64,000 nucleotides of DNA from Escherichia phage VEc20: sequence record MN022785.1; one strand, 5' to 3'. Below are positions 4,521-31,894 of the stretch, in pieces. Below the pieces are notes generated by a model. It did not search any database, was not told where the DNA came from, and was given only the letters and a program-made list of their open reading frames with translations. The translations under genes and the position numbers were made by a program. The number at the start of each line of letters is the position of its first letter. Positions within the stretch are counted from its first letter, which is position 1.

Positions 4521-5158
4521 TGAATGAACCCCAATTACTAATTGAAACTTGGGGTCAACCTGGCGAAATTATTGATGGCGTACCAATGCTTGAATCTCAC
4601 GATGGAAAAGACTTAGGTTTAAAACCGGGTTTATACATCGAAGGAATATTCATGCAAGCGGAAGTCGTCAATAGAAATAAACGTCTTTATCCAAAACGTA
4701 TATTAGAAAAAGCGGTAAAAGACTATATTAATGAGCAAGTTTTAACTAAACAAGCTCTCGGAGAATTAAATCATCCTCCACGCGCTAATGTTGACCCGAT
4801 GCAAGCCGCTATCATTATAGAAGATATGTGGTGGAAAGGAAATGACGTATACGGACGAGCTCGTGTTATTGAAGGTGACCATGGTCCTGGAGATAAATTA
4901 GCAGCTAATATTCGTGCCGGATGGATTCCAGGAGTTTCTTCTCGTGGATTAGGTTCATTGACTGACACGAATAAAGGTTATCGTATCGTAAACGAAGGAT
5001 TCAAATTAACTGTAGGTGTTGATGCAGTATGGGGTCCAAGTGCTCCAGATGCATGGGTAACTCCTAAGGAAATTACCGAATCACAGACGGCGGAAGCCGA
5101 TACAAGTGCCGATGACGCCTATATGGCTCTCGCAGAGGCCATGAAAAAAGCGTTATAA
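4520..5158 (+). CDS. 21: prohead core protease
   Basis: 212 aa; position between 68 and 22; resembles T4 gp21 from memory. Confidence 0.85.
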   Translation: MNEPQLLIETWGQPGEIIDGVPMLESHDGKDLGLKPGLYIEGIFMQAEVVNRNKRLYPKRILEKAVKDYINEQVLTKQALGELNHPPRANVDPMQAAIIIEDMWWKGNDVYGRARVIEGDHGPGDKLAANIRAGWIPGVSSRGLGSLTDTNKGYRIVNEGFKLTVGVDAVWGPSAPDAWVTPKEITESQTAEADTSADDAYMALAEAMKKAL

Positions 5159-5161
5159 ATA
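5154..5161 (+). promoter_or_regulatory. late promoter motif TATAAATA upstream of gene 22
   Basis: exact TATAAATA overlapping gene 21 stop, about 28 nt upstream of ATG 5189. Confidence 0.5.
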
Positions 5162-5188
5162 TTATTATCTAAACAACAGGACTACAAA

Positions 5189-5998
5189 ATGCTTAAAGAA
5201 CAACTGATTGCCGAAGCGCAGAAAATTGATGCTTCCGTTGCTCTTGATAGTATTTTCGAATCAGTTAATATTTCTCCGGAAGCAAAAGAAACTTTCGGCA
5301 CTGTATTCGAAGCTACCGTCAAGCAGCACGCCGTTAAATTAGCTGAATCTCATATCGCTAAAATTGCTGAAAAAGCAGAAGAAGAAGTAGAAAAAAATAA
5401 AGAAGAAGCAGAAGAAAAAGCTGAGAAGAAAATCGCTGAGCAAGCTTCTAAATTCCTTGACCATCTTGCAAAAGAATGGCTCACTGAAAATAAATTAGCA
5501 GTTGATAAAGGCATCAAAGCCGAACTGTTTGAATCCATGCTTGGTGGATTAAAAGAGCTCTTTGTTGAACACAACGTTGTTGTTCCAGAAGAATCAGTTG
5601 ATGTTGTAGCTGAAATGGAAGAAGAGCTGCAAGAACATAAAGAAGAATCAGCTCGTCTGTTCGAAGAACTCAATAAGCGTGACGCATATATCAATTATGT
5701 GCAGCGTGAAGTGGCATTGAGCGAAAGTACTAAAGATCTGACTGAGTCTCAAAAAGAAAAAGTCTCTGCTCTGGTCGAAGGTATGGATTATTCAGATGCA
5801 TTCTCAAGTAAATTGAGTGCAATCGTAGAAATGGTGAAGAAATCTAATAAAGATGAAAGCACTATTACTGAGAGTATAAATACTCCTGATACTGAAGCAG
5901 CCGGACTGAATTTCGTCACTGAAGCTGTAGAAGATAAAGCTGCACCTGGTGCAGAAGATATTGTAAGTGTATATGCGAAAGTCGCATCTCGTTTCTAA
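5189..5998 (+). CDS. 22: prohead core scaffold protein
   Basis: 269 aa, highly charged E/K-rich helical protein; synteny. Confidence 0.85.
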   Translation: MLKEQLIAEAQKIDASVALDSIFESVNISPEAKETFGTVFEATVKQHAVKLAESHIAKIAEKAEEEVEKNKEEAEEKAEKKIAEQASKFLDHLAKEWLTENKLAVDKGIKAELFESMLGGLKELFVEHNVVVPEESVDVVAEMEEELQEHKEESARLFEELNKRDAYINYVQREVALSESTKDLTESQKEKVSALVEGMDYSDAFSSKLSAIVEMVKKSNKDESTITESINTPDTEAAGLNFVTEAVEDKAAPGAEDIVSVYAKVASRF

Positions 5999-27913: not shown

Positions 27914-28179
27914 TGTTCATCCTTCAGAGTTTGGTTTACAGCTCTATTATAAATCAATTCATCATTAAGCTCAGTCAAAGACTTATGATATGTGGTTCTA
28001 ACTTTATTTCCTTGCATCCAGTGCTTGATATAAATGAAACCTTGCTCTACGCATTTTTTAAAAATTCGTTCGTCTTTTTGAGCTCGGAATTCTGGATTGC
28101 ATCTAAAAAATTGATTTACGTGACCGTAATCACGTGTAGTATTACCTTCATTTTCATAAATAGTGTGAACAACAAACAT
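27910..28179 (-). CDS. hypothetical protein
   Basis: 89-aa ORF, overlapping stop/start with neighbours. Confidence 0.5.
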   Translation of the reverse strand: MFVVHTIYENEGNTTRDYGHVNQFFRCNPEFRAQKDERIFKKCVEQGFIYIKHWMQGNKVRTTYHKSLTELNDELIYNRAVNQTLKDEQ

Positions 28180-29018
28180 TAGAATGCTCCTTGGAAAATA
28201 TTATCACCACAAGTAGGTCTATTATACAAATACTCTATACCGCCGGGTTTAATATAGTTCCATGTCTGAAACGGATGTGTCTGATATGGATGATATAGAT
28301 GATTATAAGGATTAAATCCAGGAGTTCTCCAGGTAGTGTTCCAACGAAAAGAATCGTTTTTAATCATCTTTTCAATTACATCTTTTATAGCTTTTTCACT
28401 ATCAAAACTTTCTTTATTTTCCTTTGGTGAAAAAAGCTTATTCTCTACATCGTTCCATGTATAAACTCGCTGAGCAGTTTTTGGAATACTGTCACGTTCC
28501 CCTCGAGCCATCCAATAAACAGGAACACTTAATATTTCACTCGCGTGATCGCAGTGGTGAGCGAGATCGTCAATATAACAAATTACGTTATATTTCTCTT
28601 TTGCCTTTTTGAACAACTCTTCTTTTGAAGAATCATGACCACACATCAGTACTTCTGAGAAGGCACCAGGAAAAAGAGCATTCAAATTAAATTGACGATT
28701 CAGCAGAGCGTCAATAGAATCACCCAGCGCTGTAACAGCTACAAAATTATAATCTTCTTTTAATTTGTTAATTACACACAGAGCATCTTTATATGGAGAC
28801 AAGTAACGAATAAAATCTGAACGATTGTATTTTTCAATTAACTTGACACCAAGTTCTTCATCACAATTAAAAAGTTTACCAGGAGAAATAAATTTTTCAT
28901 CTTGGATCATTTTTAAAATATGTTCCAACGGAAGATTATATTTCTGAGCAAAATAAGGAAGGCCTGATTGCCAGCTTAAACACACTCCATCAATATCAGT
29001 TAAAATAGTAGGCTTCAT
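28179..29018 (-). CDS. HAD-superfamily phosphatase-like protein
   Basis: motif I ILTDIDGV near N-terminus and motif IV YIDD; 279 aa. Confidence 0.55.
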   Translation of the reverse strand: MKPTILTDIDGVCLSWQSGLPYFAQKYNLPLEHILKMIQDEKFISPGKLFNCDEELGVKLIEKYNRSDFIRYLSPYKDALCVINKLKEDYNFVAVTALGDSIDALLNRQFNLNALFPGAFSEVLMCGHDSSKEELFKKAKEKYNVICYIDDLAHHCDHASEILSVPVYWMARGERDSIPKTAQRVYTWNDVENKLFSPKENKESFDSEKAIKDVIEKMIKNDSFRWNTTWRTPGFNPYNHLYHPYQTHPFQTWNYIKPGGIEYLYNRPTCGDNIFQGAF

Positions 29019-29479
29019 AGAGAGTCTCTTAATAGGTTTAACACATCAATAAATTCAGCTTCGGTTAGTATTGTATCATCTTTTGTTAGACCACTAGCCA
29101 TGCTGTGCTTCAAAACTTTTCCTTTCGAGGCTTGTAACGCATCACGAAAGCCCTTGTTTTGGATCGCTGCTTCAAAATATGCATTTGTGTATAATTCTTT
29201 CCACGCCGGGGAGTATCTTGAAAATGGAACTCCAAGCCAGAAGAGGGTTCCACGGTCTTGAGCTCTTGCATAAGACCTTCCAGCTTGTTGGGCGGCAAGC
29301 CCGGATAACCCAAATATACGACGTTGTTGTTCAACGTTTTTCACCTTGCATCCTTGGAGGAATCCTTCAAGACCTCCAAATTGAATACCATCCATAACGA
29401 AAGGCCAATGGGCGAAATTACTTAATGCACATGATGGCCACCTAAAATTGCTTCTAATCTCTAACTCAGACATTTTCAA
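29015..29479 (-). CDS. NADAR (YbiA-like) domain protein
   Basis: ALSNFAHWPFVMDGIQFGGLEGFLQGCK resembles the NADAR/YbiA signature FSNFA.WP..DG....SEH.FQA.K. Confidence 0.55.
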   Translation of the reverse strand: MKMSELEIRSNFRWPSCALSNFAHWPFVMDGIQFGGLEGFLQGCKVKNVEQQRRIFGLSGLAAQQAGRSYARAQDRGTLFWLGVPFSRYSPAWKELYTNAYFEAAIQNKGFRDALQASKGKVLKHSMASGLTKDDTILTEAEFIDVLNLLRDSL

Positions 29480-29672
29480 TGCTTATAATTTCAACATCAG
29501 CCCAATGACCATAGCAAGGAAGACGAAATTCAACTGGCCAGTTAGGGTCCTTTTCTAATATAATAGACTCAACTCGTGGTTCTTCACGTTCATCAGTATA
29601 TGGATTTTTATCTGTTACTTTATATGTGACCTTAATGTACTGAATTCCAAAAATCTTATTAATTATATTCAT
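29466..29672 (-). CDS. hypothetical protein
   Basis: 68-aa ORF. Confidence 0.45.
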   Translation of the reverse strand: MNIINKIFGIQYIKVTYKVTDKNPYTDEREEPRVESIILEKDPNWPVEFRLPCYGHWADVEIISIENV

Positions 29673-29866
29673 ACTAATTCCTTTAATCCGTAGATAGGAG
29701 ATAATTCATCACCCATACGAAGGTCTTCATTTCCATCTACCCAGGAAACAATATAAGCCTCTTTTATTTGAATACCACTCCATTTAAATGGAGGTAGAAC
29801 CTTAGAAATTAATCCAGGTATACCAACTCCCTTTAATTCAACAGTTTGACCTAAAAAGAATTTCAT
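29669..29866 (-). CDS. hypothetical protein
   Basis: 65-aa ORF. Confidence 0.45.
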   Translation of the reverse strand: MKFFLGQTVELKGVGIPGLISKVLPPFKWSGIQIKEAYIVSWVDGNEDLRMGDELSPIYGLKELV

Positions 29867-30153
29867 TAGAACCTCATCTGAAAACCGTGCGATTTAACAT
29901 TACCGCCGCCAATATCAGAGATATTAATTTCGCGCGCAATTGAAGGGTCAATGTCAATTTCACGATTGAGTTTAGTGATAGCTAAAGTATCGCGCCCATT
30001 TACAGTACGAAACTCTAAAGGACAAACCACATCAACGTAGTTTTTAATCGATTCACTGGTAGGCTGCAAATGAGCAGGAAGGTCTTTAGGCGCCTTTGAG
30101 AAAACCACTTCACAGAAATTTTTGCGGGTATCAAAATAAGTAGTCATAAACAT
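29866..30153 (-). CDS. hypothetical protein
   Basis: 95-aa ORF. Confidence 0.5.
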   Translation of the reverse strand: MFMTTYFDTRKNFCEVVFSKAPKDLPAHLQPTSESIKNYVDVVCPLEFRTVNGRDTLAITKLNREIDIDPSIAREINISDIGGGNVKSHGFQMRF

Positions 30154-30170
30154 AGTATTTTCCTCAGTAA

Positions 30171-30185
30171 GGGGCCGAAGCCCCT
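30171..30185 (-). terminator. GC hairpin GGGGC-CGAA-GCCCC
   Basis: seen in sequence. Confidence 0.35.
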
Positions 30186-30194
30186 CATTTTATT

Positions 30195-30572
30195 TTAAAT
30201 ATCAAATTCGTTAAGAACTACATCAAAGATTGCTTCAAGATGCTCAGGTTTAGCTCTGTTACTCAGAATATGACGAATCCAAGTTTTAACCAGAAGCTTG
30301 CGATTAACGCCATTCCAGCAAGGATGAGTCCCTAAATCGCGTTGACGAAAATCATCATCCAAAGCAATTTTGAAGTTGGAACCTTCCATTGTGATTGAAA
30401 CCGTGATGCCATTTTCAAATCGCATATAAACGTAGTTAGGAGTCATATACTGTTCAATTTCGCATACTGATCCATTTTGATGTTTCCAAAGGCAGATGGT
30501 ATCAATAGAACCTGCAATACCATTAGAAACATATTTACGTTCAAAGTTAATGTAGTTCATTTTATTCTCCAA
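30195..30572 (-). CDS. hypothetical protein
   Basis: 125-aa ORF. Confidence 0.5.
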   Translation of the reverse strand: MENKMNYINFERKYVSNGIAGSIDTICLWKHQNGSVCEIEQYMTPNYVYMRFENGITVSITMEGSNFKIALDDDFRQRDLGTHPCWNGVNRKLLVKTWIRHILSNRAKPEHLEAIFDVVLNEFDI

Positions 30573-30627
30573 GATGTTTAATTGCGGTACAGGTATATAA
30601 TATCATGTCCTGTACCAAAGTAAACAA

Positions 30628-30960
30628 TTATTTTACTACTTTCCAATGCTGCATGTCAAGTTTACCAACTTTTTTCATCTTCTCAATTAAGCGTTCGGCA
30701 CGTTGGCGAGCTGTAACATAATACCATTCACCTAATTCATTTTGTTCAATTTTTCCAACGATTACTGTATTCAATTCATAAATCCAACCAGTAAAGAAAT
30801 TATGAACTTGAATTGTAAAGGTGAAATCTGTTCCCATACCTTCTGTTGTTTCTACTTCAATAATATCACCTTCAACTGCCATTAAGAACCACATAGTTTC
30901 ATCATATTTACCATTGAAGCATTTAGTTTTAACTGCAGCGTTCAGATTAATCGTTTTCAT
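30628..30960 (-). CDS. hypothetical protein
   Basis: 110-aa ORF. Confidence 0.5.
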   Translation of the reverse strand: MKTINLNAAVKTKCFNGKYDETMWFLMAVEGDIIEVETTEGMGTDFTFTIQVHNFFTGWIYELNTVIVGKIEQNELGEWYYVTARQRAERLIEKMKKVGKLDMQHWKVVK

Positions 30961-31046
30961 TTTATTCTCCTTTGTTTGTGTAAGATAATACTATCACAAA
31001 GGAACCATACTGTAAACAACTTTATGCAATCTTTGGAAAATAAAAA

Positions 31047-31066
31047 AGGACTCCCGAAGGAGTCCT
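31047..31066 (-). terminator. hairpin AGGACTCC-CGAA-GGAGTCCT
   Basis: perfect 8-bp stem. Confidence 0.4.
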
Positions 31067-31070
31067 CAAC

Positions 31071-31289
31071 TTATGCTTTCTGCTTACCAAAACGAGAAGC
31101 ATCATCTCGAAGAACCGCACGTGCTCGGCGCATGATCTTCTCAACAGTTTGATTGATACGAGAGTTCGACCCACGCTTGTAGCCAGCGCGTTTAGAATCA
31201 CCAACTTTCTTTTCAACTGCTTTCTTTGCTTTAGCTTGTTTTGCCATTATAAATTCTCTTTTAAATGAAAATGCAGGACTTATTGGCAT
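31071..31289 (-). CDS. small basic protein (likely start at internal ATG, MAKQAKAKK...)
   Basis: K/R-rich 58-72 aa ORF. Confidence 0.4.
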   Translation of the reverse strand: MPISPAFSFKREFIMAKQAKAKKAVEKKVGDSKRAGYKRGSNSRINQTVEKIMRRARAVLRDDASRFGKQKA

Positions 31290-31645
31290 TGCCTGCGCAA
31301 GCCCTCAAGGGGAACATAGGTTTTTGGATATTTAACGACCAGGATAACCATAAACCCGTCATCATACCTTATAGCTCTTATCTGTTGCACACCGTTAGCT
31401 TAAAGGTTCCGGGTTCGATTTCTCGAGGATAAGATATATACTGATGGATATATAGGCCTTGAGGCGTACTCCCGATTGGCCATCACCTCGGGGTAGCATG
31501 CACTTGCCGCTATAAGAATAACATTCAAGAGGTACACCGTAAAACTGCCGGGGTCTTAAAACTATAATGATTCGCAAATCATTAATCAGACAGTTCGACG
31601 GCTCCTCGATTTTAGCTCACACTAAGGCAGTGAATCTCCAGTAAA

Positions 31646-31894
31646 TTACTTCAGTGTTACCACAAAGTGACGAACTGCTTTTCGTGCAGCAGAAGCCAAA
31701 GGCTTAGCATATTTAAGTTCATCTTTTTCCTGAAGCTCAGCAGCTAATGCAGTTTGAGCAGGATTCAGATGTTTGAAATAACGCAGGATTTCAAGAGCTT
31801 CGGCTTCAACATCAATAGATGCGCCATAGTTTTCGTGACCATTATTCCATGCGTTTCGTTGCAGTTCAAGAGCGTGTTGTAATTGTTTAATCAT
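31646..31894 (-). CDS. rIII: probable RIII lysis-inhibition accessory protein
   Basis: 82 aa, immediately downstream of gene 31 on the same strand as in T4; length matches T4 RIII from memory. Confidence 0.55.
   Translation of the reverse strand: MIKQLQHALELQRNAWNNGHENYGASIDVEAEALEILRYFKHLNPAQTALAAELQEKDELKYAKPLASAARKAVRHFVVTLK

Follow-up and report, generated by a model that had tools for sequence, protein, structure and literature searches.

The 64,000 nucleotide (nt) stretch of Escherichia phage VEc20 analyzed here (MN022785.1; called the window when its full length is meant) carries six consecutive small open reading frames (ORFs) on the minus strand, next to rIII. A first-pass annotation made from the sequence alone had placed them at 29466-31289, and they are indeed present there and correspond one-to-one to genes 30.4-30.9 of phage T4. 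The block is this long-annotated T4 gene set and as a finding it is already known, because annotation of the ORFs goes back decades and the experiments that bear on them are in print. On balance we consider it probable that the block consists of six genuine, individually dispensable early effector genes whose products bind host components and whose turnover takes place at regulatory spacers. Placing the genes in this way separates variable cargo (30.4, 30.5, 30.6 and 30.8) from genes which are kept in every locus compared (30.7 and 30.9), and it ties the phage to two recent experimental results, the one on 30.5 with polyphosphate kinase (Ppk) and bNACHT11, the other on AdfN with DarTG1. In kind, the protein block brings nothing new; less expected are the strongly covarying RNA structures, without a match in Rfam, in the spacer between rIII and 30.9.

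The window is from a Tequatrovirus. Over bases 29000-31700 its identity is 99.8% to Yersinia phage fPS-2 and 99.6% to the Escherichia "slur" phages, and 984 phage records match this part. The gene order on the minus strand is alt, alt.1, 30 (DNA ligase), 30.1, 30.2, 30.3, the six small ORFs, rIII, 31, 31.1, 31.2 and cd. The annotation of T4 (NC_000866) has the same order and names the six ORFs 30.4, 30.5, 30.6, 30.7, 30.8 and 30.9 (NP_049818-NP_049823). Strand, neighbours and the spacers with their promoters and terminators are likewise shared, and a tblastn search with the window proteins gives amino-acid identities to T4 of 96, 100, 99, 98, 99 and 100% for 30.4 to 30.9, respectively. T4 differs in that it is without a 155-nt segment (RNA module X, see below) which the window has upstream of 30.9; the rest are point differences. 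The six ORFs are found among the approximately 130 T4 genes which are still uncharacterised.

The six ORFs are genuine genes under purifying selection. The ratio of nonsynonymous to synonymous divergence (dN/dS), calculated pairwise against the homologues in Dhaka-, Mosig-, Jiaoda- and Kanagawavirus, is 0.02-0.47 (0.23-0.35 for 30.4), similar to the ratios for ligase, rIII and gene 31, and homologues with conserved motifs occur in up to nine other Tevenvirinae genera. In Pfam (hmmscan) the 30.7 protein matches PF06919 (Phage Gp30.7) over its full length with 176.5 bits (E = 1.8e-52; cut-off 27 bits), and it carries the invariant motif DxxRxRDLxxHPxWNxxNRK, to which R72, R74, D75, H79 and N86-K88 belong. 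The 30.8 protein matches PF06019 (Phage GP30.8) with 199.1 bits (E = 2.4e-59; cut-off 25 bits); 88 relatives of it were found, all with PF06019, and the predicted local distance difference test score (pLDDT) of its structure model is 95.7. These two self-named families are all that Pfam gives for the six proteins, their PHROG matches are all to families of "unknown function", NCBIfam and PADLOC give no match, and in the PDB sequences, searched with a concatenation of the six proteins, no match fell below E = 0.8. The statement in the first-pass annotation that the ORFs have no recognisable catalytic motifs thus holds for the six in Pfam, PHROGs, NCBIfam, PADLOC and the PDB sequences. The models of 30.7 and 30.8 have no convincing fold relative; for 30.8 the fold is confident yet without a known relative. 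Likeness to a characterised inhibitor was found neither in the PDB sequence search with all six proteins nor in the fold comparison with 30.7 and 30.8.

The most conserved gene of the block is 30.9, whose protein is 97% identical in a Kanagawavirus whose ligase is 55% identical. An exhaustive phmmer search with it against 1.84 billion representatives gave four clusters, which belong to its own family only and all have E below 1e-18. The synonymous divergence (dS) of the 30.9 coding sequence is 0.39 against CIP9 and TU02 (Kanagawa- and Jiaodavirus), compared with more than 1 for its neighbours, and lies at about 0.24-0.39 between genera. These low values suggest either a constraint at the nucleotide level or a recent exchange of 30.9 together with its leader.

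Several experiments on T4 bear on the block. According to the tables of the HIDEN-SEQ study, in which T4 was analyzed by transposon sequencing, 30.1-30.9 are all non-essential on E. coli K-12 with 95-100% of the TA sites hit (bioRxiv 10.1101/2025.11.20.689424); from 30.4 to 30.9 the numbers of sites hit are 21/21, 19/20, 22/22, 28/29, 25/25 and 6/6. The study also covered several clinical isolates. Its main text describes other T4 genes as conditionally essential against RexAB, RnlAB, CBASS, DarTG1, DarTG2, Mokosh, Septu and other systems; in the parts of the preprint considered here 30.4-30.9 appear in the gene-list and statistics tables only, with an adjusted p = 1 in one comparison (bioRxiv 10.1101/2025.11.20.689424).

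The 30.5 gene was studied by Robbins et al. (bioRxiv 10.1101/2024.12.17.629029), who found that T4 30.5 directly activates bNACHT11, a sensor related to the nucleotide-binding leucine-rich repeat (NLR) proteins. Binding of 30.5, for which the SNaCT domain of bNACHT11 is the binding part, triggers cell death, and a T4 30.5 deletion is viable and partly escapes the bNACHT11 defence. In the same study 30.5 co-purified with the host Ppk, which was confirmed by reciprocal co-immunoprecipitation. The T4 protein is an immune trigger, and the window protein, here known from sequence alone, is identical to it over 65 residues. The immediate downstream neighbour of the block, 30.3, is AdfN, a NADAR enzyme which removes the ADP-ribosylation made by DarT1 and which has been shown to be necessary and sufficient against DarTG1 (bioRxiv 10.1101/2025.11.20.689424; PMC11257639). 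The 30.3 protein of the window is 99% identical to that of T4 and matches Pfam PF08010. AdfN is joined to 30.4 by an overlapping stop/start and is, unlike the six ORFs, an enzyme with a recognisable fold. Literature searches by gp, accession and UniProt names gave nothing for 30.4, 30.6, 30.8 and 30.9, and the main text of CRISPRi-ART is without these genes.

The gene content was compared in ten Tevenvirinae loci from ten phages. Both 30.7 and 30.9 are present in 10 of the 10 loci, and therefore behave as conserved genes and not as shuffled cargo. The other four vary: T2 and ime09 lack 30.5; T2 and SEA1 lack 30.8, which occurs elsewhere as two alleles of about 110 and about 122 amino acids (aa) which are approximately 40% identical; 30.6 is replaced by an unrelated 205-aa ORF in Mosigvirus S143_2; and 30.4 is, like 30.3, confined to Tequatro-, Dhaka- and Mosigvirus among the loci compared and is truncated in T2. 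The region behaves as a hyperplastic region in that 30.4, 30.5, 30.6 and 30.8 vary between constant genes, namely ligase (30), rIII and 31, with 30.7 and 30.9 constant too. A further loss was seen in Shigella phage SP21535 (positions 4832-5315 of locus L072), which belongs to the species of the close relatives of the window; here 30.3-30.8 are lost, 30.9 and its leader are kept and a 63-aa ORF is left. Two database fusion proteins (P0011 and P0023), which carry two Pfam families each, PF08010 with PF06919 or PF08010 with PF06019, suggest that similar deletions have happened elsewhere.

The first-pass annotation described the ORFs as being of 65-125 aa and chained with overlaps of 4-14 nt. The six genes exist, but two of the starts do not stand, and the real sizes are those in Table 1. 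The 125-aa form of 30.7 begins at an upstream TTG start, and the protein is 121 aa from the ATG. For 30.9 an ATG at 31289 had been taken, giving 72 aa. This ATG lies inside a hairpin loop, it is not conserved (Dhakavirus IME281 has CAACGCC instead), there are frame-breaking 1-nt indels nearby, and T4 annotates 30.9 as 58 aa, corresponding to a start at 31247; for these reasons 31289 is not the real start of 30.9. The 42 nt at 31248-31289 which had been counted as coding are the non-coding end of the spacer between rIII and 30.9.

The chain of overlaps was found for 30.6/30.5/30.4/30.3 only, with 1 nt at 30.6/30.5, 4 nt at 30.5/30.4 and 8 nt at 30.4/30.3 (counted from the ATG of 30.3 at 29473; 14 nt from a TTG). 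Elsewhere the genes are set apart, by spacers of 110 nt (30.9/30.8), 67 nt (30.8/30.7) and 41 nt (30.7/30.6). A translationally coupled chain of overlapping genes through the whole block was not found, since stop and start overlap at 3 of the 6 junctions only. Because the remaining three junctions are spacers with hairpins and early-promoter-like sites, the block is better described as approximately three transcription units than as a single chain.

Table 1. Genes, promoter-like sites and RNA elements in and around the block (positions in the window; promoters and RNA structures are predicted).
Feature	Position	Strand	Description
30.4 orthologue	29466..29672	-	68 aa, acidic; C-terminal conserved motif LPxYGHWADVEIIS; PHROG 2042, unknown function
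30.5 orthologue	29669..29866	-	65 aa; 100% identical to T4 30.5
30.6 orthologue	29866..30153	-	95 aa; PHROG 2153, unknown function
GC-rich hairpin between 30.7 and 30.6	30171..30184		GGGGC-UUCG-GCCCC; T-rich tail on + strand only
30.7 orthologue	30195..30560	-	121 aa from ATG at 30560; Pfam PF06919
Tandem promoter-like sites upstream of 30.7	30597..30659	-	TTGACA-N18-TAAAAT (30659-30630); T4-early-type TTTACT-N16-TATTAT (30624-30597)
30.8 orthologue	30628..30960	-	110 aa; Pfam PF06019
Composite terminator/promoter spacer (PeSL-like) between 30.9 and 30.8	30988..31067	-	
30.9 orthologue	31071..31247	-	58 aa, isoelectric point (pI) 11.4; 100% identical to T4
Hairpin C	31296-31273	-	GCAGG...CCUGC, then U-rich tract 31272-31263; terminator-like
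Hairpin B	31312-31302	-	CCCCUUGAGGG + CUUGCG
Module A, candidate H-type pseudoknot	31315..31360	-	S1 31360-31355 with 31343-31337; S2 31354-31348 with 31320-31315; A-rich linker 31336-31321
Module X	31371..31513	-	143 nt; seven helices around a linker-free four-way junction; GNRA-capped hairpin

The spacer between 30.9 and 30.8 has a strong hairpin, GAGGACUCC-UUCG-GGAGUCCUU, followed by a U-tract (31067-31037) and then by an early-type promoter, TTTACA-N17-TAGTAT (31016-30988); phage Lutter has both a terminator and a promoter annotated in this place. With its stem-loop followed by such a promoter, this spacer resembles the PeSL (promoter-early stem-loop) cassettes of the hyperplastic regions of T4-type phages (Arbiol 2010; Comeau 2014, PMC4122927). 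The promoter consensus of the T4/PST PeSLs is TTTACW-N17-TAYWAT (PMC4122927), and the -10 sequence in the spacer (TAGTAT) is off this consensus at one position. The spacer between 30.8 and 30.7 has TTTACT-N16-TATTAT, and the -10 of this early promoter before 30.7 is flanked by an 8-bp inverted repeat, GGTACAGG...CCTGTACC (30581-30617, minus strand). A further likeness is that the spacers delimit the genes gained or lost between relatives, the match of the breakpoints to the cassettes being putative. The hairpin between 30.7 and 30.6 is unlikely to stop early transcription of the minus strand efficiently, because its T-rich tail is on the plus strand only. The Shine-Dalgarno sequences of 30.7 (30570-30567) and 30.8 (30970-30967) are GGAG, which matches the cleavage motif of RegB, and the T4 30.7 mRNA serves as a standard RegB substrate (PMC9409239).

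The spacer between rIII and 30.9 (31248-31645) has a G+C content of 0.42, compared with approximately 0.35 in its surroundings, and is conserved above the flanking genes. One of its RNA elements, module X, was folded with RNAalifold on 16 distinct versions. In the predicted structure 97.2% of the cells are paired, compared with 29-42% in slid controls, and compensatory changes are seen in 22 of the 44 pairs, compared with 9.6±2.0 in shuffled alignments (0 of 500 shuffles reached the observed number). Of the 50 T4-type loci examined, 25 carry the module, always between rIII and 30.9; T4 and T2 are without it. In the Klebsiella phages of Jiaodavirus it is 91-96% identical, while the flanking proteins of these phages match those of the window at 37-88%. 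Searches of E. coli genomes and of a set holding one genome for each of 185,579 bacterial and archaeal species did not find it, and the single extra match in IMG/VR (L059) was discarded as a chance 20-mer within the coding sequence of a tail gene.

Several known identities were considered for module X. It is not a tRNA, and it is not similar to T4 rnaC or rnaD, for which the alignment scores lie within those of shuffles. A SAM-I riboswitch (from CUUAUC...GAUAAG) and a type I-F CRISPR repeat, both suggested by eye, were dropped as they had no covariance-model support; the Rfam covariance models give no match for module X or module A. It should be noted that an early-promoter-like sequence, TTTACG-N17-TATTCT, is present at 31515-31543 (minus strand) with its -10 at the 5' edge of module X, where T2-type phages have TTTACG-N17-TACTAT. 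Its use is doubtful, because a transcript starting there would be without helix P1 of X.

Module A occurs once in the 64-kb window. Its outer stem covaries (GAC/GUC, GUC/GAC, GGC/GCC, GUG/CAC, GUU/AAC), its A-rich linker, CGUUAAAUAUCCAAAA, is invariant, and in most genera the 5' part of the loop is complementary to sequence past this linker, so that an H-type pseudoknot would form. In an alignment of 20 lineages (A6) 79.5% of the cells are paired and the covariation is 0.489, compared with 0.195 in shuffles (0 of 500 as high) and 0.06-0.18 when slid, for a structure which was derived by eye from the very sequences scored. The S2 helix, strong in other genera, is weak in the T4-type phages themselves. 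The G·U pairs favour the minus strand, i.e., the gene strand. The place of the module is not fixed: in Jiaodavirus it lies on the upstream side of X, in the window on the downstream side, and in SEA1 and CIP9 it starts 3-5 nt past the rIII stop codon. The ORFs starting in module A (AUGAUG...) were rejected as coding since their frame is not conserved, and a promoter was rejected since the hexamer-like elements are, by our own count, spaced too closely for sigma-70.

Between module A and 30.9 two hairpins follow, B and C (Table 1). Hairpin C with its U-rich tract ends approximately 12 nt before the Shine-Dalgarno sequence of 30.9. Every genus examined has a hairpin where C lies, and the stem sequences of these hairpins are unrelated. 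The only Rfam hit is DUF2815 RNA on the B-C part, which scores 14.5 bits (E = 7.8) where the gathering threshold is 41.2. The arrangement resembles the pseudoknot leader of T4 gene 32, riboswitch leaders and attenuator leaders in that structured RNA, including a pseudoknot candidate and a hairpin with U-tract, directly precedes the ribosome-binding site of a gene for a small basic protein. It differs from them in that nothing in the window spacer has sequence or covariance-model similarity to any Rfam family, and in that the order of the modules differs by genus. The elements may be a regulatory leader of 30.9, the 3' untranslated region of rIII or a separate small RNA. A more specific hypothesis, which we put forward tentatively and hold to be rather unlikely, is that the spacer encodes structured RNAs confined to T4-type phages, together forming either a ligand- or protein-responsive leader of 30.9, riboswitch-like or autoregulated, or a stable small RNA with its own function. 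Should the spacer RNAs indeed control 30.9, or work in trans, a virus that is among the best studied would turn out to have a new phage RNA element.

The model which we favour for the block as a whole hypothesizes that the six genes are expressed before DNA replication from three units which are read from the sequence: 30.9 with its own structured leader and terminator; 30.8 behind its early promoter; and 30.7 followed by 30.6, 30.5, 30.4 and 30.3 behind the tandem promoters, with the last four joined by overlapping stops and starts. RegB would shut off 30.8 and 30.7 after the early phase via their GGAG ribosome-binding sites. The small products would most likely exert their effects stoichiometrically, through binding to host proteins or RNA, 30.4, 30.6, 30.7 and 30.8 each binding some host factor and 30.9, which is basic and highly conserved, binding nucleic acid. 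The variable genes 30.4, 30.5, 30.6 and 30.8 would turn over through deletions and replacements that recombination produces at the regulatory spacers, and 30.7 and 30.9 would be kept. Host binding has been demonstrated for T4 30.5, which binds Ppk and is identical here, and the neighbour 30.3 has been demonstrated to act on the DarT1 modification; the rest we infer. A number of points weigh against this model. Function has been demonstrated for one of the six genes only, and in a preprint. Binding of host proteins by the other five is an extrapolation, and in the main text and tables considered here the authors of HIDEN-SEQ name no hit among 30.4-30.9 in the hosts tested (bioRxiv 10.1101/2025.11.20.689424). 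The invariant motif of 30.7, rich in Arg, His, Asn and Lys, could be catalytic or nucleic-acid-binding, and the 30.7 model is moderately confident (one of five models). Finally, the transcription units are predictions from consensus matches.

The first-pass annotation had proposed an accessory/anti-defence candidate region, in which at least one of 30.4, 30.6, 30.7, 30.8 and 30.9 would be a dedicated inhibitor of a specific bacterial immune system. This interpretation is partly supported. The region is accessory, as its T4 genes are non-essential and its content is variable, and it touches immunity, as it adjoins AdfN and contains 30.5; yet there is no demonstrated inhibitor among the six, 30.5 is a trigger, and 30.7 and 30.9 are conserved like core genes. 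A dedicated inhibitor nevertheless gains from the adjoining 30.3 being AdfN, from the variation in gene content, from the proteins being small, early-expressed orphans, and from other small orphan early genes of T4, tk.4 and nrdC.1, having recently been shown to be anti-defence genes (bioRxiv 10.1101/2025.11.20.689424). This is at variance with the transposon sequencing of T4 against RexAB, RnlAB, CBASS, DarTG1, DarTG2 and Mokosh and in clinical isolates, which in the text considered here finds other genes, with 30.5 triggering rather than inhibiting, and with the absence of similarity to any characterised inhibitor in the PDB sequences (all six proteins) and in fold (30.7 and 30.8); we regard such an inhibitor as unlikely. 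We give a similarly low probability to the hypothesis that 30.9, perhaps together with 30.7, is not an accessory gene but a conserved one that regulates the expression of phage genes, 30.9 being an RNA-binding protein acting on translation or mRNA and autoregulated via its leader as T4 gp32 is. The presence of 30.9 and 30.7 in all 10 loci, the high pI of 30.9 and its near identity where the ligases have diverged argue for it, as do the conserved structured RNA right upstream of 30.9, ending in a hairpin beside the Shine-Dalgarno sequence, and the survival of 30.9 and its leader when 30.3-30.8 are deleted. However, 30.9 is listed as non-essential in the T4 tables, though with 6 TA sites only (bioRxiv 10.1101/2025.11.20.689424), it has no homology to any RNA-binding family in Pfam or by phmmer, and the autoregulation is pure conjecture. 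That the ORFs are annotation artefacts, or filler without a function, retained only through linkage to neighbouring genes, would agree with the lack of a laboratory phenotype in the transposon sequencing tables considered here and with the lack of domains. This explanation is refuted by the selection analysis, in which dN/dS is far below 1 for all six across genera; their motifs are conserved, the 30.8 family has its 88 members and a confidently predicted fold, and the 30.5 deletion has a phenotype on a bNACHT11 host. We consider it extremely improbable.

Two observations concern the genes downstream of the block. The 30.2 protein (279 aa, 28179-29018, minus strand), described in the first-pass annotation as HAD-like, has no Pfam match; the only hints to its nature are from PHROGs, where it is weakly similar to polynucleotide kinase/phosphatase (E = 0.0036), and from NCBIfam, where it has a hit below threshold. 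Within 30.3 (adfN) a 74-aa ORF is present in another frame at 29110-29334 on the minus strand, and it corresponds to the T4 annotation 30.3', an internal translation in a different reading frame.

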